A stretch of 64,000 bases of DNA from the NCBI GenBank assembly GCA_002269645.1, contig NIVC01003413.1, forward strand, positions 35,245 through 99,244, in the 5' to 3' direction. Below, piece after piece: positions 44,101 through 64,000 of the stretch. Source of the DNA: Macrostomum lignano. Its lineage: Eukaryota. The notes beneath the pieces were generated by a model. That model was not told the origin of the DNA and made no database searches. It saw only the letters and a program-made list of their open reading frames with translations. The position numbers were made by a program, and so were the translations under genes. The first letter of the stretch is position 1; the number at the start of each line of letters is the position of its first letter.

Positions 44101-47100
44101 TTCAGAGGGCCCTTCAAAATCGCAAAGCTCATGCTAACCTTATACGATGGATCATGTACAGGATCTCCAACCGTACGGTCACAGCCTAACTCCTAGAGCA
44201 AACTGCCTCATGTACATGATCTCCAACCGTACGGTCACTGCCTAACTCCTAGGGCAAACTGCCTCCGCCAGAGTCTGTATGGGTGGGCCCCAAGGCGGAG
44301 TCCTCACCTCGACGCTCTGGAACCTGGTCATGGACGATCTTCTCCCGACCTGATCCCATCTTCATAGTCGGGTAGGCTGACGACGTCACGGCCATTGTAG
44401 CAGGGCCGTCTCCCAGCACGCTCAGGGATCTGATGCAGAGTTTTATCCGCAAAGCAGAATCCTGGGCCAATGACAACGGTCTGGAACTCTCCGAGCCCAA
44501 AACTGTTGCCATTATGTTCACCAGTAGAATACGCTGGAACATGCGTCCTCTGCAGCTTTACGGCAGAGATATCGCCTTCGCGCACCAGACCAGATGTCTC
44601 GGGGTCATACTATACCACCGGCTCAACTGGTCCTTCCACGTGCAAGCAAAAGCCAAGCGCGCCTCAGGCATCCTGGCCCAGCTTCGAGGAGCACTTGGCA
44701 CTTCTTGGGGTTTATCCCCAAGCGGCTTTGGTGGATCTAACTTCCGTAGTTAGACCTGCCGTTACGTACGCCTCTGTTGTCTGGGTTAGCGCTACCCAGA
44801 TCAAAAGCCATGCAGATTTGCTCAACACGATCCAAGGCAGAGCGTGTAGGCTTATCTGCAACGCCACCAGGTCCACGCCCTTTGCTGGCTCGGGGGCCTT
44901 TCTTCATCTACCGCCTCTTGACCTCTTCGTCACGGGTGAGGCGGCTAGAACGACGCGGCGTCTACTTGATGTCGGTGTCAAATTCCTTTACATGAGGGTA
45001 CCTGCTAAGCGGAACCTCGTCCCGCATAGCGACCTTTGCCTCAACATTCTCAACAAGTGTCAGGCCAATCGCGTCTTCAGCGATGGCATTGCCTCAACGC
45101 TCAACATGAGACAACGCTACTCCAGCTTCATTGCTACACCGACGGTTCCAAGCAGTCAGCCAACACTGGCTTTGGTGTTGTAATCTTCCCGAACGGGAAG
45201 GTCATCGCTACCCACGCTCAGTACACTGGGGTCAACTCCAGTGTCTTCCAAAATGAAGTTCTCGCCATCAGCTCCTGCACCACAGAGCTTCTCGCCACTG
45301 GCGTAACCGGTAAGAACATTTTTTTCCATTCGGACAGCCAAGCTGCCTTGCACGCCATTAGTGGCTGCAGCACCAATTCTGCTACAGTCCTGGACTGTAT
45401 AAAACTCCTCAACATGTTGGGTTCCACCAACAAAATTACCCTAAAGTGGGTTCCGGGGCATGTTGGGATCCGAGGGTAAGAGTTGGCTGACGCCCTTGTA
45501 AAAGTTGGCGCCTCTGGCTTCTCTCTCGGTCCCGAGCCTCTCGTCCCGATTCCCGGCTGTGTCATCGACTCGCGCATCAAAGCGTGGATCAGGACTCAGC
45601 ACCGCTCGACTTGGGCGAACTACACTAACTGCAGGCAATCAAGAGGCGCTGTCTCTCAGCCCTCTCACCAGCTCCGGAAGCTCCTCTTGCGCCTCTTGCG
45701 CAGAGACATCTGGCTGCCACCATGACCCTCTCGGGCCACGGATGCTTCTCCAGGCACCAGTACCTGGTGAGCAACGCCACTAACGCCATCTGCAGTTTTT
45801 ATAACCCAGGTGACGAAACCGCTGAGCATTTCGTCAGCATCTGTCCCGCCTTTACGCGGGCCAGACTCGCTTACCTCGGGCCACACACATCTAATACCGA
45901 AGCGTGCAAAATTGAAAAATTTAACCAGCTCATGCGCTACCTCCAGGCCACCCGCAGGGCTGAACTCTCCTTTCCAGAGAGCACTATAGCTGCTGGCGAC
46001 ACTGGGGGACCTTCCTGGGCGGCGCCAACCCTTCGTCCATAGCGACGCGTCGGCCGTTCAGGGATTAGCGGAATGGGCGCCCGCGCCTTCCCGCTGTGTC
46101 CCCTCCCGGACAGCCCTGCAGCTGAGTCCAAGTTAAGTCTAAGCCATTCTGAGCATTCAAGTTTGGGCTTCTAAGCAAGCAGTGTAAATTCGTAATGTTT
46201 TTTCGTTCGAACTGCGTTGCGTGATAGTTTTATTAATTACCAAAGCATGCCAATTCTTAGCACTCCCATGCATGGGCAGATCTTTACGATAGAAATAAAA
46301 TGCAGGCCTGACACGCTTCGCTTCGACTTTTGGCTTCGCTATGAAATAACTATTGAAGCCCTAAGCAAGCTAAATCTTTGAGATCTTATCAGTGACGCGA
46401 ACTTCTAAAGTACATGTACAGCTGGCCAAGAATATTTTGCGTCAATTGATGCCGGTTTAACATTTGAGTTGCAAGAATCCTAGGAGATGCGCTACAAACT
46501 CTTAAGGCCGTTTCACTCTAAGCTACTAACTACGATATTTGCTGAGTCATCGCCAGAAAACGGAAGTGTAAATTATTTCCGTGGGAATGAGCTCCGTCAC
46601 TTCGGAGAGATTTCCCCACTTACAGCATTTGCCTTGGCTCGAGAACACAGGCCCAGGCAGAGGTCGAGCCAGCCGTTTTTCTCGTCCCAAGCTTGCCTAG
46701 AAGTGCAGTTCGAGACGCAGTCGAATCGGTTCCCATAAGGCAGTGACGGCGTCAGAATGCGCCAAGTCACGATGAGCGCCGTCAGAGGGTTGAACTTGGA
46801 TCGAACCTCCTGCTCGATGATCTGCTTGACCGCGCGCCAGTTCGACCTGGTGCTGTGTTTCCTCGAATTCAGCAGCTCGTAGGAAACCTTCGGAGTCCAA
46901 TATCTTCGGTAGTAGTTGGTGGCAGGCTTAACGAACCAGTAAGGCGCCACGACGGCTCCAGTAAAGTTGATCTTTGCCGAGTAGGAGTGGTATGGTAAAT
47001 ACCTCAAGCGATAACCAGAGAAACTGATTGCGCCGTATTGGCTAACCTAGGGTGTTGAAATTGTTATAATTTAAAGTACACAGAAAAAGTTAAATTTCAA

Positions 47101-48099: not shown

Positions 48100-49409
48100 G
48101 ATGATTTGCAAGAGAAAGTTCAAGTTTCACAGAAGGATTTATTTTCAATGAAAGTCTAACTGATGCAGGAAAAGTCTTTCACTCTGCGGTTTCCTAGAGC
48201 GGCACTCAGGGGTTTAAATAAAAAAAAAATTAAGGGAACTTCGTTGCAGAAAATCCGCGGCAATTCCGTCGACTGCCAGATGACTTGAGTTTTGCACAGG
48301 TACCTTGTTTCTTTTTTTAGTATCAAGGTGGTCTGTTTATTATTACCGTTTCAAGAGACTGTTTCTATTTTAAGCAACAGACTAGCAATCAGCGCCTCCC
48401 GTTTTGCGGAGGCAACGAAAAAGGGATAAAATATTACAATATTTTTAATAAACTACATTAAGATTTGACCTTGAATAGTTTCTATTGTCAGAATCGTAAG
48501 GAAAAAGATGTTTAAAGCAAAAAACATCAGCCCTCAAAGCCAGCTATCCAGTATAAATTAGCGTCTCCTCAAGACATCAATTTGACATCAAAGCTTTCCC
48601 TTAAGCCATGACCTAACCCTAATTCTCCCTTTGATATAACTTTTTCTTTGCCAGCTACCAACAAATTCAAATTGAACATCGAGCCTCAGCTTTTCAGCAA
48701 TCCCCCTGAGTCTTAAGCACAGAATTCTGTGGTATTAGCATCTCAACAATTCCCCCAAGACCCACAGCAAGGCCCGTGAGCCTTGACGTCTACGCAATTC
48801 ACCTCGTAAGACTTGACATCACAGCGATTTCTCCTGTGGACCTTAAAATCTCAGCACCTCCCCAATTTTAAATTTCAAAAACTCCACCCATAAGCCTTGA
48901 TATCTCAGCAATTTTCCAAATGAACCTCGACATCTCAAAAATTCTCCCACGAGCCTTGAAATCATAGCAATATTCCCTATGAGACTAGAACAGGTTTTAT
49001 TTTCCTGCTATCTTTTGCCCACAAGCCAGAAAGACTTTCTAACAAACTGGCCTCCAAGGGCCCTATTATGAGTGTGAGGCTCACATCTTAGAATTCCTTT
49101 TTCGACTGTATTTTATAGTCAAGCAAGCAAGCAGGTTAGTTGACAAAATGCAGAGCAATGCAGTTTTGAGCGAAGCAGGGTTATCGCTCAAGCCGTCCCT
49201 TTCTGTGCCATTCTTAGGCACCATATCACCCACCAAAGCATTTGCTGCGAGTCAACTGTGTCACGCGCTCGCAGGCTGCTGGCTTGGCTCTCAAACCTCA
49301 ACTTTGTTATTTGTAATTTAGTGTAGAGCTGGTCTGGCTGGATAGCCCCGGCCGAGACGAGAGGAGGCTGTTGTTTTTTTGCTGCGATGTAAGCACTTTT
49401 CCAGTGCTT

Positions 49410-49560
49410 ACGAAGACTGTTTCTATTTTTAGCAACAAGGTGGTCTGTTCCTATTGTCGCCGCTTGAAGAGACTGTTTCTATTTTTAGCAACAAGGTGGC
49501 CTGTTCTTATTGTCGCCGCTTGAAGAGACTGTTTCTATTTTTAGCAACAGATTCAGGTGC
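49410..49560. repeat. ~59-bp tandem repeat (AGACTGTTTCTATTTTTAGCAACAAGGTGG...)
   Basis: About 2.5 copies; a related copy at ~48305-48385. Confidence 0.8.
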
Positions 49561-49799
49561 CACTGCTGTAAACCTCTGAGCAGACTTTGCATTCCCACCA
49601 AGCAAGTTTCCTATAGCTAAACTTTGAATTATAAATCCAGGTTTGCAAATAAATGACCCAAGATGGCTTTGAAAAAAATTAGTCAATTGTTTCTGAACGC
49701 TGTCGTGAGTGCCGTGGTTGAACAGGAAAACAGAGTTACTCAAATAAACTGATGAGTAGAAGGCATGAGGGGGCTTTTGGGACAAAATTTTTCACCTCC

Positions 49800-50035
49800 T
49801 CCATAATCCACCTAAATCCATCCATATTATCCCTGACAGAATCAGAAAAAAGGGGGGTCGCACTCGCTCCGAAAACATCGTCCATAATCCACCTAAATCC
49901 ATCCATATTATCCCTGACAGAATCTTGAAAAAGGGGAGGGGTCGCACTTGCTCCGAAAACTTCGAACATAATCCTATTAAATCCATCCATATTATCCCTG
50001 ACAGAATCAGAGCATTATCCCTGACAGAATCAGAG
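49800..50035. repeat. ~81-84-bp tandem repeat x3, possibly subterminal to the first viral element
   Basis: CATAATCCACCTAAATCCATCCATATTATCCCTGACAGAATC recurs at 49800, 49881 and ~49965. Confidence 0.85.
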
Positions 50036-50223
50036 CATAACAGTAGGACACCTGTTATGCTCACTGACACCGACATCCACCCATAGCATGTTCGAAACAA
50101 TCAGAAAATAATCTGCATTCTTCTCCCCACATTCAATTTGCAAAGCGAAACCAGATCCCAAAGACTTTAAATCATCAGCGCAGGGTCCTTACCCTTTGAA
50201 AAAAATCTAAATTCTCAATAAAA

Positions 50224-50463
50224 ATGTTTCCAGTTGTCTCTCCAAGTTCTTATTACAAAGCGCACGAGCCTAATTACAAATCCAAGTACCGATGCAAACT
50301 TGAATGCAGCGAGTACATGAGAAAATATTGGCCCGGCATGGATATCAATGTCCCTAATATTAATCAAGCTCTCCAAAGACACTGGTTTGAAAAACATGGA
50401 GTAACCTATGTAAAAGATTACGACAGCTACTATAACTTTGCAGAAATCATTAAGCAATTGTGA
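50224..50463 (+). CDS. Hypothetical 79-aa protein of element A
   Basis: ORF with TAAAAATG start context like neighbouring viral genes; converges tightly on the penton gene. Confidence 0.55.
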   Translation: MFPVVSPSSYYKAHEPNYKSKYRCKLECSEYMRKYWPGMDINVPNINQALQRHWFEKHGVTYVKDYDSYYNFAEIIKQL

Positions 50464-50467
50464 TTTC

Positions 50468-51331
50468 TTACATTCTCTCAATGATCAACGTCAATACAAA
50501 CTCTTCCCCATTAAAATCAACGCCCATCCCATCTTCAGTCTCAAACTGTAGCACAATCTCGTGAATCTCCTTATTACTCAATACAACTCTTTTCACTGGA
50601 TTTGGTTTCTCTACCACCATCTGTCCTCCAGCTACAGAGTTGGAGATATTGTACAAAATATTCGTTCGCTTTCCCTTAAATACCCAATCAAGACTAAGAT
50701 TACTTCTGATTAGAATATTCAAACCCTTTACAATGTCTGCAATATTGGGTGCTAAGAACAAACCGCTTACATTTTCCCGGGCCATTTTAACGGTCCCCGA
50801 TGCTTGAGTGGCGGTCCGCGCCGCGGATTCTGCCTTATAAACTTTCTTCTCGAATCCTAATTCCCTATACCAAGTGTCATCTCTAAACTCAACCTCCGCA
50901 TCTTTGTGAACTTGCATGACCACTCTCATTACAGTGAGATCATAGGTTAGTTTGACAGGGAACAGTTTCTTCTCTGGCTTACTCGCATCAGGTGTCTCAA
51001 AATGGCCTCTTTTAGTAAAGACGTTTTCTAGAAAGTTATTGTAGGTATCCACACTTTGCGTGCTCACATGGAATACCACAGGGTCTGCTGCTGCACCTTT
51101 CCATTTGTAATAAAACTTATTATTTGCTGCCATCACATTGGGAACGTTTGACCAACCAGTGAAGTCGTTAAGATAGACATGGTAATTAGCGCCTGGATCC
51201 AGGCGAATCGCCTGCTCTAATTTTTCAACAAATATCCCGTTTGAGTCATTAATTAGCCCGGTTATTGTATTAGGAATGCTCTCCTTAGAGTGTGAAACAA
51301 TGTTGTTTAGTCTTTCGGCTATGGCTTCCAT
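50468..51331 (-). CDS. Minor capsid (penton) protein, Polinton/adintovirus-like element A
   Basis: WSNVPNV..ANNKFYY, NILIRSNL, TNILY, VVEKPNPV, VDFNGEEFVLTLII motifs; adjacent to the MCP. Confidence 0.75.
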   Translation of the reverse strand: MEAIAERLNNIVSHSKESIPNTITGLINDSNGIFVEKLEQAIRLDPGANYHVYLNDFTGWSNVPNVMAANNKFYYKWKGAAADPVVFHVSTQSVDTYNNFLENVFTKRGHFETPDASKPEKKLFPVKLTYDLTVMRVVMQVHKDAEVEFRDDTWYRELGFEKKVYKAESAARTATQASGTVKMARENVSGLFLAPNIADIVKGLNILIRSNLSLDWVFKGKRTNILYNISNSVAGGQMVVEKPNPVKRVVLSNKEIHEIVLQFETEDGMGVDFNGEEFVLTLIIERM

Positions 51332-51354
51332 TTTTTTCACCCACAAAAAAATAT

Positions 51355-52641
51355 TTAAACTTTACTGGATGAATTGTTGATCATGTTAAGCTTCACCTTC
51401 CTCTCAAATGCATAGACAATGTACAGGTCCACGGGTGTTGCGGCAGTCCTTTCAATGTTAGTCACGATATTCACAGGGCTGTTATCAGTAGGCATTTGTC
51501 TGGCAGACACATCAGCGCCAAACATCGGATATAGAGTTCCATATTGAAGAGCAGTGATAGCAATTCCATTGTTCTCTTTCACAGCCAAGTCGACCAACTC
51601 GCTGTAAAATTTGCTAATCTTGTTCTGACTGAAATTTCCATTTTGTGGCAGTGCAGGGTAAAGATTATCACTGATTTCATGCTGAATGGACCGCACGTCT
51701 CCATGCATGTAGCGTATAATGCTATTTGGGTTTCTCATGTTAATAATAATATACCGTGGATTGCTGCATGATCCCTCTTTAATGCAGATGTTTGTTCTAG
51801 TTTCGTTTCGCTCATCTCGACACATGTAGGCCGTGTATGCAACATCAATGTCCTTCTCTATTGCCTTAAGATAATCAGCTTTTAGTGCAGTCTTTGGCTC
51901 AATGACTTCCAAATACAGCTCGATTCCGGTTAGCTTCACATCCATCCTAGTGTGATCCGCCCCAGTCCACAACGCTCTACTGCGATCATCTCTAGTCAGT
52001 CTAAATGTGTAGCTAAAGTTGCTAGTCAGTCGATTAAATGTATTACAGAATCCACTCATGAATCTCAATGGTACAAATACATCAACAGACCGATACAGCG
52101 GGTTCTTAGCAGCATCATCAGCACCTTGCAATGCATAGTTGTATCTCTTCTTCCTCTTTTTATAGCCACTGTCATTGGTGTCTCCTTCTTTTTCATCTGC
52201 AATAAAACCCGCACCACTTCCCAACTGAATAAAATCAGGATTCTCAATCAAACAATGAGCGTCATAGACAATTCCAAAGTTGGCGATTCGCTCCAACTCT
52301 GTGTTCCCATTCGATACACTAAACTCCTTGAACATGTACGCCCAAAAGTTACTGATCAGAGCCACATCCGCATCATGCTTGTCAACGTTAGCACGAGCCG
52401 CATCCGCACCACCTTTTGTCTTGAATTGAAATGTCATATGGAAGCCGCTCTTAAGACTGTGCACACTAACCAGAGACGAACATCCATTGTATGTAAATGT
52501 CAGTGTTTGACCTGGACCCAAATTAGTTTCATTCTGGTTCTCGTGACTCGGAACTCTAACTTGTGTCGCTTTGATTGTGCTATCATCACTCAAAATAGGC
52601 TTGTTAATTTTGTAGAAAACTGGTGTCAGTGGGTCGTTCAT
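51355..52641 (-). CDS. Major capsid protein (double jelly-roll), element A
   Basis: 428 aa, intact; DDSTI, VALISNFWAYMF, VFVPLRFMSGFCN, FRLTRDD, YPMFGADVS resemble one Polinton/adintovirus MCP lineage. Confidence 0.75.
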   Translation of the reverse strand: MNDPLTPVFYKINKPILSDDSTIKATQVRVPSHENQNETNLGPGQTLTFTYNGCSSLVSVHSLKSGFHMTFQFKTKGGADAARANVDKHDADVALISNFWAYMFKEFSVSNGNTELERIANFGIVYDAHCLIENPDFIQLGSGAGFIADEKEGDTNDSGYKKRKKRYNYALQGADDAAKNPLYRSVDVFVPLRFMSGFCNTFNRLTSNFSYTFRLTRDDRSRALWTGADHTRMDVKLTGIELYLEVIEPKTALKADYLKAIEKDIDVAYTAYMCRDERNETRTNICIKEGSCSNPRYIIINMRNPNSIIRYMHGDVRSIQHEISDNLYPALPQNGNFSQNKISKFYSELVDLAVKENNGIAITALQYGTLYPMFGADVSARQMPTDNSPVNIVTNIERTAATPVDLYIVYAFERKVKLNMINNSSSKV

Positions 52642-52671
52642 TTTTTAACTAAAAATAAAATAAAATAAGAA

Positions 52672-53892
52672 ATGAAGCGGAAAAGTTCATATCATATCTC
52701 TGAACTAGAAAAGCTGGCGCAAGCAGAGAAACGAGTTACCGGACTAATCAACAAAGAACAACAATCTTACAATGAATTCGTCCAAGCAGCCACCGAATTT
52801 CACAAACCTGGATACACAGAAGCGAAGAAAAACATCGACACTGTGAAGGAAACAATTGATGATATTCAAGAGAGCCAGTTGCAAAACACATTGGGTAAAA
52901 TCCCATCTTCACCGGGACAACCACAGGCTCAGCAACCAGGACAACCAGTGCAGATGAAAGTGACGGATAACTTTTTTGGCCCCGTATTGGATGATGGAAA
53001 ATATATTTTTGGAATTAGCGCCTGGCGAAAAAATATTACCGGGGAACCGGCGGATTACAACATTGAAGTGACAAAGGAAAATATTTTAATCAATAAAGGC
53101 GCAGAAACTAAACGAATCCCCTTCACTCAAAGTTTACTCGACTACATGACTAAAAATCTAGAGAAAACGTCTAAAAAGCAGTTCGAAAATTACAAAGATC
53201 TTGTTACCTTCGCTTTAGAGAGGGATATAGATATGCTCAAGAACGACGGTGTTTTGAAAATTTTACATGAAAACGGGATTGTCTTGAACAGGTTTAAAAA
53301 ATACAAATACTTTCAACAATGGTTTGGTTTGCCGGATCAAGAAGAGGTCATAAGACAACAACCACAACAACCACAACAACCACAGCCACAACAGCAGCAA
53401 CCAAAACAACAACTACAACAACAACTACAACAACCACAACAGCAGCAACCACAAACACAACCACAACCACAACAACCTCCACCGCCACAGCAACAAATCA
53501 CACCCGAACAAGTACTAGAAGCGCTTGAAAAAGCAGGGCCAAATGAGATTTCCCAGTACAAAGATACAAACCCTGATACTTGGCGACAATTAGAGCGGCT
53601 CTCACCAGAACGAATGAAGCGAATCAATGACAGAGTATTCACACCTCAACAAAGACAAGCGCCACATGACAGTTCCTCCTCTGACCAATCATTCGAATCA
53701 CCTCCAAGCTCTTCCGGAAAAGGCATGCCTGAATTCTACAAGCGGTTAGCTGTTCTTCTAGGAGCGGCAAAGACCGGAATGAAAGACGAGAATAGAAAAG
53801 AATTTGTCAACATCCTGGACAAAATGCTTGAGAGAAAATATATCGATAAAAGAGCAAGAGAACTTTTGCTTTCACGGTTTAACAAAAAATAA
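52672..53892 (+). CDS. Polinton-associated protein with Q/P-rich linker
   Basis: 406 aa intact; C-terminal GKG...RLAVLLGAAKTG...EFVNILDKML resembles a motif common in Polinton accessory ORFs. Confidence 0.65.
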   Translation: MKRKSSYHISELEKLAQAEKRVTGLINKEQQSYNEFVQAATEFHKPGYTEAKKNIDTVKETIDDIQESQLQNTLGKIPSSPGQPQAQQPGQPVQMKVTDNFFGPVLDDGKYIFGISAWRKNITGEPADYNIEVTKENILINKGAETKRIPFTQSLLDYMTKNLEKTSKKQFENYKDLVTFALERDIDMLKNDGVLKILHENGIVLNRFKKYKYFQQWFGLPDQEEVIRQQPQQPQQPQPQQQQPKQQLQQQLQQPQQQQPQTQPQPQQPPPPQQQITPEQVLEALEKAGPNEISQYKDTNPDTWRQLERLSPERMKRINDRVFTPQQRQAPHDSSSSDQSFESPPSSSGKGMPEFYKRLAVLLGAAKTGMKDENRKEFVNILDKMLERKYIDKRARELLLSRFNKK

Positions 53893-53908
53893 ATTTCTAT
53901 TTAAAAGG

Positions 53909-54277
53909 ATGCCAATTATTTTCGAAAAAGACATTGACAAATACTACGACAAAGAGGAACTTAATCTCATTAAACGCGGATCTGGACTTTTCCCTGCAGG
54001 CCACTATCCAAGAAAAGAACGTTCTGGGAACGGTCTTGCCGATTTGATCGCTCAAGGGGCCAAGATTTTTAAGGTCATTGGAGAGAACAAAGAGAACATC
54101 AAGAACGTTGCCAAAGCGGCTGGCAGTGTAGCCACAGCAGCCAAAAAGATAAAGGATACTGTAACACCTAAACAAGATATTCAACCCCTTGCACCGAGTG
54201 CAGATAGTGTCGATCCAGCCATCTACGCAAAGATGAGAGCTGAATATAAGAAAGGAGGCGGTTTTAAATTTGACTAA
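53909..54277 (+). CDS. Small putative virion core / membrane-lytic precursor
   Basis: ATG at 53909; G-x-G motifs (KRGSG, RSGNG, KKGGG) and amphipathic helix GLADLIAQGAKIFKVI. Confidence 0.55.
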   Translation: MPIIFEKDIDKYYDKEELNLIKRGSGLFPAGHYPRKERSGNGLADLIAQGAKIFKVIGENKENIKNVAKAAGSVATAAKKIKDTVTPKQDIQPLAPSADSVDPAIYAKMRAEYKKGGGFKFD

Positions 54278-54473
54278 TTTGGTGCACCCTGACGGTAAAA
54301 GAGGTGTGAGGGTGTAGGACTAGTCGGATGTAGGACTAGTCGAAAAAAGACACACACAACCCGAAAAAAGACACACACATCCCGCAAAGAGACACACACA
54401 TACACATCCCGAAAAAAGACACACGCGTCTTAAATACACAAGTTTAAAAAGAAAAAGTTTTTTTACATAAAAA

Positions 54474-55273
54474 ATGGACTTCACAAACGACTTTCATCCC
54501 CACTGGACACGCAATCAGATAAAATTTGCTCACAACGAGATAATTCCAGGGCACTTCCGATGCATTGTTGTTGGCTCATCTGGGTCAGGGAAAACCTTCA
54601 GAGTTTTTAACATGCTCCTCAGACCTGGATTCCTCGATTATGACACACTACATATCTATTCACCCACTCTGTATCAAGATGAGTATAAAATGCTAGTAGC
54701 GGGCCTACAGAACAAACTCAACAAGGAAGATATTATTCAATGTTTTAGACATCAAAAAGACCTCAACAGCAACCCGGAAGTTGTAGCCACTGAATACGCA
54801 AAGCACATCCCAGACAATGAAAAATGGCAAAATATTAAAGTTTTCACTTATGGAGATCCACAGATAGATCCTAAAACTAAACTCTTACCTCAACCTGATG
54901 AACTAGAAAAGGGGAGAAAGCACCTAATTGTCTTTGATGACTGCATGACCGGTCCCAGAAACAGATAGAAAATTATTTCACCCGGGGTAGACACAATAAC
55001 TGCAATGTTATTTACATTGCCCAAAACTGGTTTGAACTGCCAAATAAAACAATTAGAGGTAACTGTAATTTGATTCTCCTTTTCCCAACCATACCACAGG
55101 ATCGACTGAAACGATTTTATAATGAAGTCATTGCCCCAGCTCACATTACATATCCAGCTAAGAACTCTAACAGAACAATATCACAGGAGGAATTTGTTAA
55201 CATATGCTATGAAAAGTGGAACCAACCTTATCAGTTTGTCATGATTAATAAGGAGAAAAGAATTTTAATTTAA
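54474..55273 (+). CDS. A32-like packaging ATPase, element A (one frameshift)
   Basis: Walker A GSSGSGKT, Walker B LIVFDD, then shifted frame ENYFTRGRHNNCNVIYIAQNWF; shift at GGTCCCAG ~54950. Confidence 0.9.
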
Positions 55274-55288
55274 TTTTTCATTTAAAAA

Positions 55289-56014
55289 ATGTCTATTAAT
55301 TTTGCAGGTGAGTCAACTACAAGCAACAGCACTCTCACAACTTCCTTCCTTGATAAGCGCTACATTAACACTGATGAGGAGATCCCAGAGATCAAACTGA
55401 ATAAAAACAGACTGAAAGCCCTAGAGCGCTCCATGCACCAGTTGCAAATAAACATGGAAGATCTCAGGCTTAAAGTAGCTAGGCAGAAGTTTGAAAGTGA
55501 TAAGCTTTATGTGCCGTTGTTAAACGCAACTAATGAACTTAGGTCAGAAATAACTTCGGCAGTCTCGCAAATCAACGGCTTAAGATCGACAGTTAATCTT
55601 CTGGGAAATTCCACTGATAGACGGATGCGTATTCTTGAAGGAGGAGTTTTCGCAAACACAGCTAAAGTGAGGAATTTAGAAGAGTTCATGAACCAGTCAA
55701 CAGCGTTGCATGATAGAATTAAAGAAAACGTCGCAACCAACACAGGTAAAGTGAGGAATTTAGAAGAGTTCATGAACCAGTCAACAGCGTTGCATGATAG
55801 AATTAAAGAAAGACTTGATGCAATTAAAGTCTATTTAGATTTAATTTTTACCGAATGGCAGAAATCGGTGAGAAGAATCGGTCGTCTTGAACGCTTGCAT
55901 AATCTCAAAAACATTGACGCTGAAGAGGCACCACAGACCTGCACAAGGGAAACAAGTGATCCAACCGACTTGTTTGAGATCATGCGTAGAATGGAGCTCA
56001 CAGACAATGAATAG
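55289..56014 (+). CDS. Coiled-coil protein with internal 27-aa duplication
   Basis: KVRNLEEFMNQSTALHDRIKE occurs twice (81-nt repeat); heptad-like composition. Confidence 0.65.
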   Translation: MSINFAGESTTSNSTLTTSFLDKRYINTDEEIPEIKLNKNRLKALERSMHQLQINMEDLRLKVARQKFESDKLYVPLLNATNELRSEITSAVSQINGLRSTVNLLGNSTDRRMRILEGGVFANTAKVRNLEEFMNQSTALHDRIKENVATNTGKVRNLEEFMNQSTALHDRIKERLDAIKVYLDLIFTEWQKSVRRIGRLERLHNLKNIDAEEAPQTCTRETSDPTDLFEIMRRMELTDNE

Positions 56015-56122
56015 GCAGATTCAGAGACCTGTTGCCGTCACTGCAGACAAAGCAATCAACCGTAAAACAAATCTAACCACCACCAACTAGTTGCCGATTT
56101 TTTTTTAAAAATTCCCTAAAAA

Positions 56123-56533
56123 ATGGATGCTCAAAATTCTCTTTATGATCCGAACGCTCCCACAACACCTAGTGCACCTAGTGCACCCCAATATGAGCAA
56201 CAAAAACTCTACCCCGTCATTACTTGTAACTCTCAACAGTTTCGACTAGTGGAGATTCAAAAAATGCGAGATGATCTTGAAAAAAATATTTTCCACAACA
56301 CAAAGAAAATTAAGCGCTATGACAGCCACTGTAAATTTTTCGACTACAGCAATATGATTCTAGGATCTGTGTGTGTTCTAACTGGGTCTGCTGCAGCTGT
56401 CTCAACGTTGCCAGTCATCACAGCCCCAATCGCAATTCCACTTGGTTCAGTAGGTGCTGCATGTGGACTTATTTCAGCAATTACTGGAGCATTAGCGCGA
56501 GTAGTAGGGCGAATTATGATACTGCCGCACTAG
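56123..56533 (+). CDS. Adintovirus-type hydrophobic membrane protein, C-terminally truncated
   Basis: LYPVI...FRLVEI...KRY followed by two hydrophobic segments; frame runs into AGTAGTAG at 56500 and stops. Confidence 0.6.
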   Translation: MDAQNSLYDPNAPTTPSAPSAPQYEQQKLYPVITCNSQQFRLVEIQKMRDDLEKNIFHNTKKIKRYDSHCKFFDYSNMILGSVCVLTGSAAAVSTLPVITAPIAIPLGSVGAACGLISAITGALARVVGRIMILPH

Positions 56534-56575
56534 CACTGGCGAGATAGGCGGCAATGCAAATGTATAGGGAAAAAT

Positions 56576-57070
56576 ACACTGCGGAGATATGAGCCCTATC
56601 TCTGTGCATTGGGGACGGCTAAGCACTGCAGAGATATGAGCTCTATCTCTGTGCATTGGGGACGGCTAAGCACTGCAGAGATATGAGCTCTATCTCTGTG
56701 CATTGGGGACGGCTAAGCACTGCAGAGATATGAGCTCTATCTCTGTGCATTGGGGACGGCTAAGCACTGCAGAGATATGAGCTCTATCTCTGTGCATTGG
56801 GGACGGCTAAGCACTGCAGAGATATGAGCTCTATCTCTGCTTAACACAGGAGTGATAGGAGAAGAGGCGGCCTATTTCTTTACACTGGAGATGGTTAACA
56901 CTGCAGAGATAGGAGGAGAGGCGGCCTATCTCTTTGCATTGGGGTGGTTAACACTGCAGAGATAGGAGGAGAGGCGGCCTATCTCTTTGCATTGGGGGTG
57001 GTTAACACTGCAGAGATAGGAGGAGAGGCGGCCTATCTCTTTGCATTGGGGGTGGTTAACACTGCAGAGA
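56576..57070. repeat. Tandem hairpin repeats: 47-bp unit x~5.5, then 53-54-bp unit x~3
   Basis: Stems CAGAGATA/TATCTCTG (7-nt loop) and AGAGATAGG/CCTATCTCT (11-nt loop). Confidence 0.95.
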
Positions 57071-57114
57071 TAAGATGTTAATCTATGTAATTGGAAATAA
57101 TGTTTGCGAAAGAG

Positions 57115-57175
57115 CCAATCACAGAGCCCGGAGTGGGATGGGTGGTTTGGGGTGGTTCGGTCGAGGGTATATAAG
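57115..57175 (+). promoter_or_regulatory. Putative Pol II promoter (CCAAT box + TATA box)
   Basis: CCAAT at 57115, G-rich tract, TATATAAG at 57168-57175, ~105 nt upstream of ATG 57280. Confidence 0.6.
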
Positions 57176-57279
57176 CCCCGAAACTGACAAGAAAGAATTC
57201 TCAATTTTTCAAATCCAAAATTTCATCCGAACTTTTCCTCAGCTTTTAACTTTTGTGAGTTTTCAATTGCGAAAGGAAA

Positions 57280-58056
57280 ATGGACATCTGTGAAGGCTAT
57301 AAGGCACAAGTCCAGGAGTTTGAAGGACAAAAATTTATCGCTATTCGCAAGTTTTACCGACACGGCAGCACGGCAAGTCTGAAGCCAGGCGTCCCAGGAT
57401 TCAACCTGAATGTTCACCAATGGAAGAAATTGAAGGAGGTGAAACGCTCACTTGTGATTTCTGCACGCAACAACGAGCCCAAGGTCGTGAAACTCGGCTT
57501 CGATAAGTTTGTGGAAGTCAAAGGCGGCATCATTTGGCTCAAACGGCTGCCGGAAGATTGCTGCGAGGAGTTTTTGAGACGAAACGCCGTACCACTGACT
57601 CCGCCGCTGTGGCAGAAGCTCTGGAAAATCGCCTCCTGGATCGACGGTCAGCTGGTGGCTCCCTTGAGGAACACAATGCAGTACGAGCTGGAGTCTGATG
57701 AGGAAGAGGAGGAAGAGGACAAGAAGCTCAAGTTGGAGGCTGACCAGGACACGAAGCCCATAATGGAGACTGATGAGGGCGGAGATCATGCTGATGACGA
57801 GGACGTTAGCTCGCCCACAAGGCCGCGCATTGTGACTGAGCCAATCACATCCACACCGATACCTTCGGTTGATTCTGATGCTGGACTGCTTCCGCAGCGG
57901 GACACCAACCTTGAGGAAGATCCGGTGTGGTATCAGTTCAGGGCGCATGCAGCGGCTTCGACGGTGAGCAGCAGCAGCAGGAAGCGAAAGCTGCCATTTC
58001 AACTTCGTCGGCAGGACGCGATGAGGCTGCAGCCCAATGTTCGCTTTGATAACTGA
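57280..58056 (+). CDS. PC4/Sub1-like ssDNA-binding domain protein with acidic tail, element B
   Basis: VQEFEGQKFIAIRKFY...PGVPGFNLNVHQWKKL is a PC4 signature; a second degenerate repeat follows. Confidence 0.75.
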   Translation: MDICEGYKAQVQEFEGQKFIAIRKFYRHGSTASLKPGVPGFNLNVHQWKKLKEVKRSLVISARNNEPKVVKLGFDKFVEVKGGIIWLKRLPEDCCEEFLRRNAVPLTPPLWQKLWKIASWIDGQLVAPLRNTMQYELESDEEEEEEDKKLKLEADQDTKPIMETDEGGDHADDEDVSSPTRPRIVTEPITSTPIPSVDSDAGLLPQRDTNLEEDPVWYQFRAHAAASTVSSSSRKRKLPFQLRRQDAMRLQPNVRFDN

Positions 58057-58376
58057 ACAGCTAGAATGCTTTGAATGCATTGGACTAACTAAATTACTTT
58101 TAGCTTGCACATGATTATCCAGCCTGACGGCACTATGCTGTTTTTTATCTCTGCTATTTCTGAAATGCTGGTGTGCGAGTGTTTTAGTGTTCGTTTTTAT
58201 GGATTGTTTGCTTTCGGAAAATACACCGACTGTTACGATGTTAGAGGTTTCAATCTGACAGTAATAAATTAATTTGCCACTCGTTTCTCTATCATTTAAT
58301 TGGAATATAAATTTCTACTTAAGAAAAAATACTGTACAGCTAGAGCAGGTGGATAGGCACGTATCTTGATAAACCC

Positions 58377-59447
58377 ATGATGGAGAAAATTTATTTGAAA
58401 CCTGAGCAACCGGCTAGTTTTTCTTGTGCCTCAAAGTTGCTGCATGAAGTGAGGCAAAGAGGTGATCGAATATCTGCAAAGAGCATTGAGCAGTGGCTCA
58501 GCGAGCAGCCAGTGCACACTCTGCACAAGCCAGCTAGGAGGCGATATCCAAGGGCCCCAATCATAGTGCGCGCAATCGATGATCAGTGGGAACTTGACTT
58601 AGTGGAAATGATTCCATTCGCAAAGCATAATAAAGGCTACAAATATATTCTCACATGCATTGACGTGCTCTCAAAATGTGCTTGGGCCAAGGCACTGAAA
58701 AATAAATCTGCTGCAGAAGTGAAGTCAGCATTCGAGAGCATACTGAGAAGTTCAAAGCGCCAGCCACGCACAGTTCGCACAGATCAGGGGAAGGAATTTA
58801 TCAACTCCACTTTCCGTCAATACTGCATTGACAGAGGGATTCTGGCTTTCCCAACTAACAGCGAGCAGAAGGCAGCTGTCATTGAGCGATGGAATCGAAC
58901 TCTGAAAAGTAGAATGTGGCGCTACTTCACCTACAAGAGCACACTGCACTGGCTTGATGTGCTGCCTAAGCTGGTAAAATCCTACAACAATACCTACCAC
59001 AGAAGCATCAAAATGGCACCCACTAGTGTCTGCAAAGAGAATGAATCTGAAGTGTGGATGAACCTGTACGATGGAAAAGCAGTCGAGACTCTAGAAAAAT
59101 TAAAGAAGCCTAAGTTCGCTGAAAACCAGTCAGTGAGAATTTCCAATGCTCCACGGATATTCAAAAAGGGATACAAAGCGAGCTGGAGTGAGGAAGTGTA
59201 CACCGTGGTGAGCAGAGCCCCAAAACATTATCCCTACATGTACAAGATTAAAGACATGCGGGGGCAAGAGATTCGAGGACTCTTCCATGAGCACGAGCTG
59301 CAGGCTGTCCCGGACTCACAGCGGCTGTATGTGATTGAGAAGATCCTGAAAACGGAGAAGCGGAAGGGAAAAATTCGCTATCTGGTGAAATGGGCGGGCT
59401 ACGACTCGACTGGCTGGGTGGATGAAAAAGACTTAAGAAAGGTTTAG
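58377..59447 (+). CDS. Maverick/Polinton rve (DDE) integrase with C-terminal chromodomain
   Basis: WELDLVEM, CIDVLSK, TDQGKEF, IERWNRTLK, YNNTYH; chromo IEKIL...YLVKWAGY...WV; intact. Confidence 0.95.
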   Translation: MMEKIYLKPEQPASFSCASKLLHEVRQRGDRISAKSIEQWLSEQPVHTLHKPARRRYPRAPIIVRAIDDQWELDLVEMIPFAKHNKGYKYILTCIDVLSKCAWAKALKNKSAAEVKSAFESILRSSKRQPRTVRTDQGKEFINSTFRQYCIDRGILAFPTNSEQKAAVIERWNRTLKSRMWRYFTYKSTLHWLDVLPKLVKSYNNTYHRSIKMAPTSVCKENESEVWMNLYDGKAVETLEKLKKPKFAENQSVRISNAPRIFKKGYKASWSEEVYTVVSRAPKHYPYMYKIKDMRGQEIRGLFHEHELQAVPDSQRLYVIEKILKTEKRKGKIRYLVKWAGYDSTGWVDEKDLRKV

Positions 59448-59475
59448 CTTTGGCACAGCCCTCATCATGTAGTTT

Positions 59476-60294
59476 ATGATTATAATGCGAACTATTTTGA
59501 TTAACAGTGAGCATGCTGAAGGTACTCCTAGTGACTTTAATTTTTACCTGCCTTCACCTATTTACTTGGATCGAAATGTGGACTATGAGGCAGGTCTGGC
59601 TGAAATCCATCTGCCTGCTGCATGGTTCAATGTTGACGAGCCTTACTGCTTCACTGTCTCAGATGGAAGAGAGCATGAGGCCCTGGTTCTTCAACCCGGA
59701 CGCTTTGCTAGAGTGGAGGAGCTGGTGGAGCGCCTGAATGAGCTGCTGGCCAACTCTGATTCGCTGTTCTTTGATGCAATGAGTGACAGGGAGTCTGAGA
59801 TGGAGGCTGATGAGTCCGGCCTGATGGGGCGTAGTGGCAACAGGGAATTTGGTATGAAGTTCGAAATCCGCAACTCACGAACTGTGGTGCACAACAACAC
59901 TGCGAGAGCAGAGCTGTTTCTTCCATCTAGTAAAATTCTGCATTGGCTGGGATTTGGAAACCAGGCTGTGAAAATCCAGCCAGGGAGCCGCGTATCCGAG
60001 CATTGCATTGGCTGCCCGCGCACCAGCTTAATCAATGTGCACTGCAGTATCGTTGAGTCAACTAATTGCAACTGGAGCTCCTTGTTGAGAACAGTTGGAA
60101 TGAAAGCTGGCATTGAATGGGGCAACTATCAAACAAAAATATTTAAGAAAACAATATTCTTCCCGATTCAACGAATCAGTCTTCTTCACAGCATTCGAGT
60201 TCAGCTGCGGGACATCTATGGTTGCCCACTGATTGCACAGACTCACAGCCCTGTTCTGCTTACAGTTCAAATTCAGGAGAAACGCATTCAATGA
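59476..60294 (+). CDS. Minor capsid (penton) protein, element B
   Basis: NSEHAEGTPSDFNFYLPSPIYL...YEAGLAEIHLP, INVHCSIVE, SIRVQLRDIYG; intact. Confidence 0.8.
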   Translation: MIIMRTILINSEHAEGTPSDFNFYLPSPIYLDRNVDYEAGLAEIHLPAAWFNVDEPYCFTVSDGREHEALVLQPGRFARVEELVERLNELLANSDSLFFDAMSDRESEMEADESGLMGRSGNREFGMKFEIRNSRTVVHNNTARAELFLPSSKILHWLGFGNQAVKIQPGSRVSEHCIGCPRTSLINVHCSIVESTNCNWSSLLRTVGMKAGIEWGNYQTKIFKKTIFFPIQRISLLHSIRVQLRDIYGCPLIAQTHSPVLLTVQIQEKRIQ

Positions 60295-60668
60295 ACTACC
60301 AGCAGCTAATCCAGCAATATTCGGGGGTGAGGACAGGACACGAAAAGCCTGCACTCTATGGCTGTGGGAGCTTCCCAGGGATCATGACATACCAGCCTCC
60401 GCCAGCGGCTATATCATCATCATCAGCCTCGACGCTTAGCAACGTCAGGCGCAAAAGAAATACTGAAGCAAGTCCGAAACGATTGAAGAAAAAGAAGGGC
60501 ACCCGAAAGGCAACTGGTGGAAATCGCAGTAAGAGGTCGAGCAAGGCTAGTGGGAAAAAGCTTAAGAATAGGAAGACGAAAGCAAAGAAGAATAGAGCAG
60601 GCGGAGGAAAGCGAAAGCAAAAAGTCAGCAAGAAAACTGTGAAACGCGTGCTCGACTCTCTGTCATAG
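60291..60668 (+). CDS. Basic K/R-rich putative core protein, element B
   Basis: ATGA overlap with the penton stop; YGCGSFPG then lysine/arginine-rich tail. Confidence 0.6.
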   Translation: MNYQQLIQQYSGVRTGHEKPALYGCGSFPGIMTYQPPPAAISSSSASTLSNVRRKRNTEASPKRLKKKKGTRKATGGNRSKRSSKASGKKLKNRKTKAKKNRAGGGKRKQKVSKKTVKRVLDSLS

Positions 60669-60670
60669 AC

Positions 60671-61952
60671 ATGGCTTACGGATTCAATCCCAGACTTGAT
60701 TTATTTAAGACGCCCGTTCTACAAACCTGCATTGAAAAAGCTACTTATGTTGATATTCACCCAGTTAATTCCATTGTTGCAAACTCTCCATTGAATTTGA
60801 CTGCCACCAATCTGCCGATGAATATACAGATCTGCTTAATTCTTTTCTTTATATTCGCTGCCGCCTTGTGAGACTGGATGGGGGTTTGCTGAGGGAGGAT
60901 GTTCGAGATGGAGATGGCATCATCACCGAGCGCAGAGACAGTGACGTGCACCCAGAAAATTTTGTTCTGTCTACAGCCTTCTCAGATGTAATTGTGAGCA
61001 TTAACCAGCGAGTGGTGTCTGGTGGAGACCAGCTCTATCCCTACCATGCGTACTTCAAAGCACTAATGAGCTCATCCGATGCCCAGCAACTAAAACTTTA
61101 CCCTGCTGGCTTCCTGGAGCCGAACTCGGCAGCTGAAGAGCACACGGAGAGCCACAGGGAATCCCAATGGATGGAGTATGCGGGGCCGCTCTTCAGCGAT
61201 GTTTTCCAGTGCCCAGTGTTTCTGCTAAGCAATCTGCACCTGCACATCAAACTGGTCCCAGCGATGGGGCCTTTGCCATCAGAACCCCGAATGCAAACAA
61301 CGCGGCATACCGAATGGAAATCTCTCACAGCATTCTGCATCTTCGCCGAGTCAAAGTGATGCCCCACATCAGCCTGGCCCATGAGCAGGGGCTGACAAAC
61401 CAAAATGCACTGTATCCCATCGAGCGAACTGAAATGCAGAACTTCATCCTACCCCAGGGTATTCAGTCAAAAAACATTGAAGGATTCACTCATGGAAAAT
61501 TGCCGAAGTTCATCATGCTGGCCTTCGTGAGCCACCGAGCATTCAACGGTCATCATCACGCGAGCCCGTTACAGTTCCAGAGCTTCAACCTTAGCCGATT
61601 GGCTCTAAAGAAAGGTGGGGAAACCGTGTGCCACGGCGCCTTCACACCTGAAAACAATTCCTTCGTAAGAGAATACTTGCACTACCTGAAAAGCTGTCAA
61701 TCTGCAAGCCACACAAACTCGGTCCCGTGGATCCCCTACCAGCTCTTCTCCAACAACACCACGGTGTTTGCATTCGATCTCACACCCGAGGGAGCGGCTC
61801 TGTGGTACGGACAGAAGGAGGGCAACCTGCGGCTGGAGATTCGCTTCCAACAGGCTCTGAATGAAGCGGTGTCCCTGATTGCTATGTGCCTGTATGACTC
61901 GCTGATTGAGGTCACCAAGCACCGAGAGCTTTTGCTGGACTATTCCTCTTAA
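60671..61952 (+). CDS. Major capsid protein, canonical Maverick type (two frameshifts)
   Basis: LDLFKTPVLQTCIE, YPYHAYF, YPIER, AFNG, FAFDLTP, GNLRLEIRF; single-base gaps at ~60790 and ~61260. Confidence 0.9.
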
Positions 61953-61957
61953 TTGAC

Positions 61958-62470
61958 ATGGATGCAATTCAACTACTTAATCTCGCCAGAAAATTTTTGC
62001 CTTACCAAAAATTTCTCATAGTTACTTTACATTTGCGCTATAAAAATTCTCTGCCCTTGAATGTAAAAAGAAAATTTAGATCATCAATTTCCTTTGAAAA
62101 CAAGTTTGTTTTTGTCCTACTTCAGCACAATGGCTCATTTGGTCACTGGGTGGTGTGCTATGTTGGGCAAGGAAATCGCATTGAGTTGTTCAACTCCCTC
62201 GGCTGGGAACCTGAAATTTTATCTTTGGTTTATAATTTGTTTCGAGAGATTAAAACAACTGGCTTTTGGCTCCGAAGCAATATAAACAGAGTTCAATGTG
62301 CTAACTCTAATAAATGCGGAATGTTTTGCATCTATTTTGCTTATCAAAAGTTTCTGTTCAATCGGTCATTTGAGGGGATTTTGAAGCATTTGCATGCTAA
62401 TGAGAAAAATCATTTGAATGATAGAATCTTACAGAGGTTTGAAGCCAACTTAAGAAAAAGATGTCCGTGA
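61958..62470 (+). CDS. Adenain-like cysteine protease
   Basis: GHWVVCY, IELFNSLG, VQCANSNKCGMFCIYF catalytic motifs. Confidence 0.9.
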   Translation: MDAIQLLNLARKFLPYQKFLIVTLHLRYKNSLPLNVKRKFRSSISFENKFVFVLLQHNGSFGHWVVCYVGQGNRIELFNSLGWEPEILSLVYNLFREIKTTGFWLRSNINRVQCANSNKCGMFCIYFAYQKFLFNRSFEGILKHLHANEKNHLNDRILQRFEANLRKRCP

Positions 62471-63139
62471 TTTCTAATATTTATGCATTAAACATGGGAG
62501 AAAAGCAAGTTTGCTACGATATCCGCCTCAGGCAGGGAAGCTGCATGATTGTCTGCGGGCCCACCAATGCAGGAAAAACAACCTTTGTCGAACACCTGAT
62601 CCAGTACAGAGACGTCATGTTTGATGTGAAGCCTGGCAGAGTTCTGTGGTACTATGGGATCTCACAGGCAGGCCATGCAGAACTGAACAGCCTAGGTGTG
62701 CAGCTGCGCCAGGGATTTCCCACCAACATCGAGGCAGCACTTAGGCCCAATGACCTGGTTGTTTTCGATGACTTAATAGAGGAAACTTCAAACTCTGCTT
62801 CAATGCGAAATTTTTTCACAGGAATCGCACATCACTTGCCGTGCTTTTGGTGATGCTGACTCAGAATATATTTTTCAAGGGAAAAGAGTCGCGAACAATG
62901 AGCTTGAATGTAATGTACTTAGCTATCTTGAAAAACCCCGAGACCAGCTGCAGATTGCAGCACTGGGCAGGCAGTGCTTTACAGAGAAGCCCGGCTTTCT
63001 GCTGTCAGTGTTCAAGCACGTGACCGCGCAGGGCAGGGGAGCCTACCTGTTCCTAGACTTTCACCCATCAACTCCCGATGAGCTGCGAGTGCGGGCCAGA
63101 ATTCTGCCCAACCAGCGACCCCATCTTGTATTTGCTTAA
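62461..63139 (+). CDS. A32-like packaging ATPase, element B (two frameshifts)
   Basis: GPTNAGKTT, VVFDDL, MLTQNIFFKG, shifted NPRDQLQI..LGRQ and YLFLDFHP. Confidence 0.9.
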
Positions 63140-63180
63140 GAAAGTGAAGCTTGTTTTTATCAGCTATTGTTTTCATCGCA

Positions 63181-63517
63181 ATGGAAGTGCTTGATTCATA
63201 TGCAAGTCTTTTTGCGGTTCTTGCGTCACCTAAATATACCGTGCGCTTCAAGCGGCTGTTGATAAAAAATTGTCCAAAAGAAGTGCGTTATTTTCTTGTC
63301 GAGGCCTGCCATAATCTCTTACAAAACAATCTATCGTTTTCGCTCGATGAAAAGCTGTTCTTGCAAAGTCAAAAGAGATAATTCGAAAAATTACTCACAA
63401 AAGAAAAAGACAGACTTGTTGAAGGCTGGCTTCATCAAAATACTCCCGATTCTGCTTAAGCTGGTAAAGAAGAAGAAGCAAAATGAACAAATTTTCAGAA
63501 ATGGTTCTGATTCCTAA
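63181..63517 (+). CDS. Conserved Maverick small ORF (frameshifted)
   Basis: LVEACHNLLQNNL and GFIKILPILL resemble the small Maverick ORF that follows the ATPase. Confidence 0.55.
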
Positions 63518-64000
63518 AGCAGAGTATGAGATGTTGATGCAGAATTTGAAGCCAAATGAGACTACCACTGAAGCTGACTTGAAGCAGGCTCAGAAGAAAT
63601 GCGATGACATCTTGTATGCCGAGGATTGTCCAGAAGATGTGAAAACCGCCATGTACCAAAGTGCAATGCAAAGTTTGCTGGCCAAGCGCAAGCACGCTGG
63701 AAAAGAAGGAGCACGCAATACTGAAGCCAAGTTGATGAAAACAGAGACACCCAGATAAGCACCTGGGAAGAGAAGATCAGCAAGTCGTGTGCCACAGAAA
63801 TTCAAAACCAGGGCTCGCAGTCTGTGGACGATCCTGTCCACCAATCCAGAGCTGATTCGAGTTTGTGAAAACGGGGAGGTGGAAATCGCCAGGCCACGTC
63901 AATCCCTTCCTCAAACATACTGCGACTTGATTCAGCACACAGTGAGGGATCGCCATGTGAGCGTGAACCAGTTGGGTGGGAACGAGTTCATCGATTTTCT
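63483..64000 (+). CDS. Maverick accessory ORF, interrupted, runs off window
   Basis: MVLIP start; downstream VPQKFKTRARSL...ENGEVEI motif. Confidence 0.5.

Follow-up and report, generated by a model that had tools for sequence, protein, structure and literature searches.

Introduction

Animal Mavericks, also called Polintons, are described as elements with terminal inverted repeats (TIRs), 6-bp target-site duplications and genes for a pPolB polymerase, an rve integrase, a protease, an ATPase and capsid proteins (PMC8097293; this paper and those cited below are referred to for the part of each text that was available). We analyzed a stretch of 64,000 nucleotides from the flatworm Macrostomum lignano (G000:C3413:35245-99244, hereafter the window) that carries two different capsid modules of this kind, belonging to two elements named A and B here. 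Both resemble the animal Mavericks in their TIRs, 6-bp duplications and core gene set. The ends of B carry the (AGT)2 motif quoted for Mavericks in PMC8097293, and those of A read AGTAGA, unlike the (AGT)2 or (AG)3 given there. A and B also differ from the elements of that paper in coming from a flatworm and in their nested arrangement, which the available part does not describe.

The virion genes of adintoviruses form two discrete modules, Alpha and Beta, which have been exchanged across polymerase classes, with PLA2X accompanying Alpha (PMC8502044). Element A is similar to the Mayetiola (Alpha) module in having PLA2 and adenovirus-pX-like genes, but these sit in separate open reading frames (ORFs; PF08398, E 9e-14, and Adeno_PX PF05829, E 4e-7), unlike in that module. 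No PLA2, pX or gasdermin match was found in the B ORFs scanned. Two Polinton classes, pPolB1 and pPolB2, occur together in a nematode genome, and the HNH-type nuclease domain inside pPolB2 was regarded as confined to oomycete and nematode pPolB2 (PMC10748475); diverse homing-nuclease inserts have been described in polinton pPolBs (PMC11161782). M. lignano is similar in having two classes in one animal genome. The nematode classes have a common capsid module and different polymerases, whereas A and B have a common polymerase class and different capsid modules: identity between their pPolBs is 29-33%, an Endonuclease-VII-like insert is present in both, and their integrases are 28% identical. Such a mosaic, with polymerases of one class beside differing capsid modules, has been described before in adintoviruses.

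Nesting of mobile elements is in general commonplace, and retrotransposons nested in Polinton-like viruses and virophages are known (PMC12220804). As in that work, a second mobile element breaks a gene of the resident element at our locus, but the guest there is a retrotransposon and here a second full Maverick. Orthopolintovirales insertions have been reported in flatworms (bioRxiv 10.1101/2025.04.19.649669). Our literature search, of incomplete coverage, returned no paper describing family A or B or a Maverick within a Maverick.

Results

One Maverick Inside a Gene of Another

A preliminary description, made from the window alone, had placed two major capsid protein (MCP) genes at 51355-52641 on the minus strand and at 60671-61952 on the plus strand, and both are located as claimed. 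It had also counted one integrase, one protease and no pPolB; we found one rve integrase and one Peptidase_C5 protease in the region, and no pPolB ORF in 36000-64000. This seeming lack of an integrase, protease and pPolB for A arises because the window ends where the contig ends, at window base 64000. The remaining half was found on contig C4040, which reads the rest of B and then the rest of A. Assembled from the two contigs, which meet inside B, the order is host, CTGATG, A left part, AGCGCG, B, AGCGCG, A right part, CTGATG, host. We consider it very probable that B, a Maverick/Polinton of 16.8 kb, interrupts one gene of A, a 15.8-kb Maverick belonging to the other capsid lineage, probably through a chance landing after A had inserted.

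The inner junctions were mapped to the base. Window matches to A copies stop at 56500 and matches to B copies start at 56496-56501. The B target-site duplication AGCGCG occupies 56494..56499 (plus strand), directly before the B left end (56500..57072, plus strand), in which a TIR starting AGTAGT is followed by 47-bp and 54-bp tandem repeats. At the far end of B (C4040:53030) AGCGCG appears again, followed by A from the empty-site base. Two other A copies run uninterrupted across the insertion site, and ends in the public-run (Logan) contigs also read A through it without a break. The outer ends give a second pair. CTGATG lies at 49749..49754 (plus strand), just before the left TIR of A (49755..50462, plus strand), which starts AGTAGA, is about 710 bp long and includes 81-84 bp tandem units; on C4040 the far TIR of A (C4040:44018-44729) is followed by CTGATG and then by the same host tandem array as at the left of the window. 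Two nested elements, the reading favored from the window, thus have two junction pairs, each with matching 6-bp duplications. With two pairs of ends, two target duplications, two integrases and two polymerases, the locus does not have the make-up of a single element.

The next DNA had been pointed to as the place to look for pPolB genes and TIRs, and C4040 indeed supplies both for both elements. Past the far end of B it reads 9.0 kb of A with a protease, pPolB pieces, pX, an integrase, PLA2 and the far TIR. The matches in this A copy are rve (E 7.5e-11), Peptidase_C5 (E 1.4e-4) and, for the pPolB fragment, PF03175 (E 3.8e-12). The B pPolB on C4040 is a 1152-aa ORF matching PF03175 (E 2.1e-12).

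The two TIRs of B are identical at 340/340 bp, and those of A are 96% identical over 712 columns; this difference fits B as the later insertion. By these ends B would have arrived after A and would be the younger family. Following known Maverick biology, each element would be copied by its own protein-primed pPolB from its inverted ends and pasted in by its rve integrase, leaving a 6-bp duplication. B would have landed by chance once A had inserted, and in doing so would have cut a gene of A for a protein with a hydrophobic stretch.

Two Separate Multi-Copy Families

The two capsid modules belong to two separate multi-copy Maverick/Polinton families, not one dual-capsid element. Exact end patterns matched 346 times for A and 66 times for B, with no match in the controls of either; the B pattern misses ends with altered first 25 bases (e.g., on C906). 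In DNA searches with the MCP genes, the best 40 of 345 candidates for A were 97-98% identical to the window copy, and the best 40 of 146 for B were 96-100% identical.

Free-standing A copies measure 14.7-16 kb, more where other elements lie inside them, and carry TIRs, 6-bp duplications and genes for protease, pPolB, a pX-like protein, integrase and PLA2. Among further full-length A copies, pPolB, integrase and PLA2 matches were present in 10/10, and a protease ORF of at least 80 aa in 8/10. Matching target duplications were also found at C1151, C860 and C869. Free-standing B copies are about 16.8 kb long, with TIRs, duplications and their own pPolB; B copies are up to 99.9% identical. For same-contig B end pairs elsewhere, the duplications match in 7/11.

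We also asked where A and B occur together. For 64 of the remaining 65 B ends, the outer flanks were compared with both elements, and the one end left over was examined by itself; of the 64, only C4040:53030 lies in A. Between the MCP hit lists, best 40 each, the common contigs are only the present one and C759, where other DNA separates A and B, which are 20 kb from each other. Co-occurrence had been raised as a check in the preliminary description; A and B were apart at the other loci examined.

The modules had been described as complete and unrelated, with no obvious sequence similarity. The last point holds: the best BLASTP E-values are 5.6 for the MCPs, 0.52 for the penton candidates and 0.016 for the ATPases, the latter with the 130-aa fragment of the window on the B side, and blastn between the two families gave no match. 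"Unrelated" is too strong, as the MCP profiles align with an HH probability of 95.8 and 12% identity over 323 columns. Because the profiles align while BLASTP finds nothing, the MCPs are remote homologues. Recent paralogy of MCP-A and MCP-B, which was also considered, is ruled out by the absent BLASTP similarity and the 12% profile identity. Their homologue lists consist of different proteins (9 for A and 29 for B). "Complete" also goes too far, since MCP-B of the window has two frameshifts and both ATPase frames end early (164 aa in A, 130 aa in B).

Alternative Explanations

Several observations weigh against the nested reading as we give it. The locus is split across two contigs, and their overlap falls inside B, so that the join needs evidence beyond this overlap. 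Over its 873 columns (window 63132-64000 against the end of C4040) the overlap is 98.9% identical. Flanks do not match in 4/11 of the same-contig B end pairs, which suggests that the assembly can mix B copies; joins within B are for this reason unreliable alone, and the case for the nest rests on the duplications. Both families are present in the Logan contigs of six public runs, but among the matches listed there, which are the longest records after some filtering, no contig spans 56499/56500, a result that counts neither for nor against the nest. Finally, an open full-length A pPolB frame was seen in 0/17 A copies with a match (the count leaves out two A rows and three B-type rows that had no match above threshold), and the present-day autonomy of A would have to be read from its gene content rather than from an intact copy.

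An assembly artefact joining two repeat families would agree with both contigs ending inside B, with an overlap crowded with indels and free of substitutions (10 gaps, 0 mismatches), and with the lack of a spanning contig among the public-run matches. We think it very unlikely: each inner junction comes from a separate contig, and the 6-bp duplication is identical at both and sits precisely at the empty-site base. A further duplication matches between the outer ends, which are flanked on both sides by one host array. Nothing in a misjoin would be expected to yield such a pattern. Still more improbable, to the point of being hardly credible, is a dual-capsid composite, a single mobile unit of about 32.6 kb made up of A and B, with A using the integrase and protease of B. 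The window alone, with its one integrase, one protease and no pPolB, invites this interpretation, and the two TIRs of A do bound the nest, so that copying as a unit would be possible in principle. The dependence of A on B proposed in the preliminary description is not supported by C4040, where the integrase, protease and pPolB fragments of this A copy lie beyond B. B also retains its own TIRs and target duplication. No second A-B join was seen in the 64 other B ends, in 30/346 A ends compared with A and B, none of which lies in A or B, or in five oversized A regions searched for B guests. The extra DNA of these regions gave no B match; it is retroelement-like or, on C716, a third Maverick family around the A copy. 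That element (G000:C716:319322-350888) has the ends AGTAGTAGTATG, TIRs of about 600 bp and the duplication GCCGCT, and the A copy inside it (332389-348559) has the duplication CACCAT. Immediately to the left of the third-family element there is a further A copy.

Nested insertion of B in A could also be other than random, if Mavericks prefer Maverick targets or if such insertions are better tolerated, so that modules are brought together for exchange. We regard this as unlikely, and equally so the broader proposal that Mavericks nest in each other above chance and that two-capsid nests are physical intermediates of adintovirus module swapping. Two Maverick-in-Maverick nests within a modest sample speak for it, as do pPolBs that share a class and an insert while the MCPs are only 12% identical. 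Nesting occurs in more than one pairing (B in A, A in the third family) and shows no bond between A and B. The 66 B ends collapse to 35 distinct flanking 6-mers, of which one is in A. If A makes up about 0.35% of the genome, as estimated from the A end count, 30-40 B sites would include at least one in A with a probability of 0.10-0.13; this figure is approximate, since some sites seem to be represented repeatedly in the assembly. One site in 35 is thus within chance, the target 6-mers have no evident consensus, and A copies also host unrelated retroelement-like insertions. A and B have no DNA in common, and hence there was no recent exchange between them. A further possibility is that A has lost a working polymerase and that its recent copies were made with pPolB in trans, for example from B. 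An open frame in 0/17 A copies against 4/6 B copies with a match (1220 codons) would suit this, as would one break position that recurs in 8 A copies. Most of the A breaks lie at scattered positions and are unique to one copy, a pattern that decay or long-read indel errors would give; these two together explain the breaks best. Moreover, the 17 copies were seen out of roughly 170, and the ends of A and B agree in their first five bases only. Provision in trans seems improbable to us on these grounds, somewhat more so than a preference of Mavericks for one another.

Gene Content of Element A

From its left end, A encodes a putative minor capsid protein, or penton, of 287 aa (50468..51331, minus strand), for which position and unnamed viral look-alikes provide the label. 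The MCP (428 aa, 51355..52641, minus strand) is an open frame with a predicted double jelly-roll. It matches the double jelly-roll-like family PF21738 at E 2.8e-5, under the curated cut-off, and this family is present in 9/9 of the MCP-A homologues found. Its structure model is of low confidence (pLDDT 53.5) and still resembles viral MCPs, which we take as supporting evidence only. On the plus strand follow a Q/P-rich protein of 406 aa with no assigned family (52672..53892), a small protein of 122 aa with no Pfam family (53909..54277), and a frameshifted A32-like packaging ATPase (54474..55272, the end being approximate) whose first frame of 164 aa ends at 54968. The ATPase is 266 aa long in another A copy, and that of the C860 copy matches Pox_A32 at E 3.8e-6. 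Next come a 241-aa protein with an internal 84-bp duplication and weak matches to helical families only (55289..56014, plus strand), and the gene with a hydrophobic stretch that B interrupts (56123..56499, plus strand), which is unbroken in other A copies.

Two pentons and two A32 ATPases had been named at this locus. Candidate penton genes are present in both elements; the label comes from position, size and look-alikes, without a named family or fold. Neither has a Pfam match, and their Atlas look-alikes (0.97-0.98) are unnamed, largely viral clusters. For the ATPases, the Pox_A32 match bears out the assignment in A; in B the assignment is tentative and comes from a P-loop motif, weak NTPase matches and the position of the gene.

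In five of the seven A genes (50468-56123), a run of five to seven A stands immediately 5' of the ATG and is itself preceded by an AT-rich tract. The B genes, compared at their start context, have no such run before the ATG. In A these runs may represent a common signal, either a late promoter or a start context.

Gene Content of Element B

All B genes in the window are on the plus strand. A 258-aa protein with a PC4 domain (PF02229; 57280..58056) is followed by the rve integrase (356 aa, 58377..59447), which has a C-terminal chromodomain, by the putative minor capsid protein (penton; 272 aa, 59476..60294) and by a basic protein of 125 aa that is core-protein-like in composition (60291..60668). 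The MCP gene (60671..61952), also a predicted double jelly-roll, has frameshifts near 60.8 kb and 61.3 kb, which are absent from the five closest copies compared. In 5/10 of the B-type copies with ORFs listed, MCP-B is an open frame of 427 aa. A natural open copy from another contig models at pLDDT 85, and Foldseek relates the model to the PBCV-1, mavirus and Sputnik capsids at E 1e-14 to 1e-15. A Macrostomum lignano UniRef record is 100% identical to a short part of MCP-B. Downstream are an adenain-type cysteine protease (Peptidase_C5; 61958..62470), a putative P-loop packaging ATPase (62461..63140, the end being approximate; frame ending at 62853 after 130 aa), and the start of a gene of 206-230 aa that is cut by the contig end (63483..64000). 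The 130-aa ATPase fragment has the P-loop motif and weak NTPase matches in Pfam, and no Pox_A32 match.

Further variation was seen within family B. Three short derivatives (G000:C318:55494-60959, C754:359773-368168 and C1228:17640-25492; 5.5-8.4 kb) retain both ends between matching duplications and are probably internally deleted, non-autonomous copies. On G000:C3189 and G000:C2301, two B MCP matches each stand in opposite orientation about 4 kb apart, which suggests fold-back copies or assembly palindromes. A subfamily (C759, C114) combines a near-identical capsid block with a diverged PC4 gene, integrase start and polymerase, and has no pPolB frame more than 70% identical to the main B type, which may reflect exchange among members of the family. 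Finally, the right arm of B (L135:871-3665) contains two repeat-rich ORFs (460-472 aa and 159 aa). Both include short peptides repeated in tandem, whose copy number varies between B copies, and the ORFs have no convincing family.

Host Surroundings

The nest interrupts a host tandem array, seen at window 1-47800 and at C4040:27000-41000, with a period of 8-14 kb and units 90-99% identical. Its ORF fragments resemble what we take to be a mucin-type extracellular protein. A search of neighboring array copies for an empty-site paralogue of the A insertion found none. Within the array, window 41620-46042 holds a presumed non-LTR retrotransposon-like insertion with endonuclease/RT-like ORF fragments; ORFs similar to these also occur inside an A region at C27. 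Just left of the A insertion are 56-bp tandem repeats (49414-49549), with a related copy 1.1 kb further left (48302-48381).

Discussion

With the nest resolved, the locus no longer stands as a candidate dual-capsid or helper-dependent virus-like element. Both families are ordinary Mavericks, and the nest is an ordinary nested insertion. What is left after this analysis is two flatworm Maverick families with distant capsid lineages, one of which, B, has recently spread, together with a clean, dated nest of one in the other.

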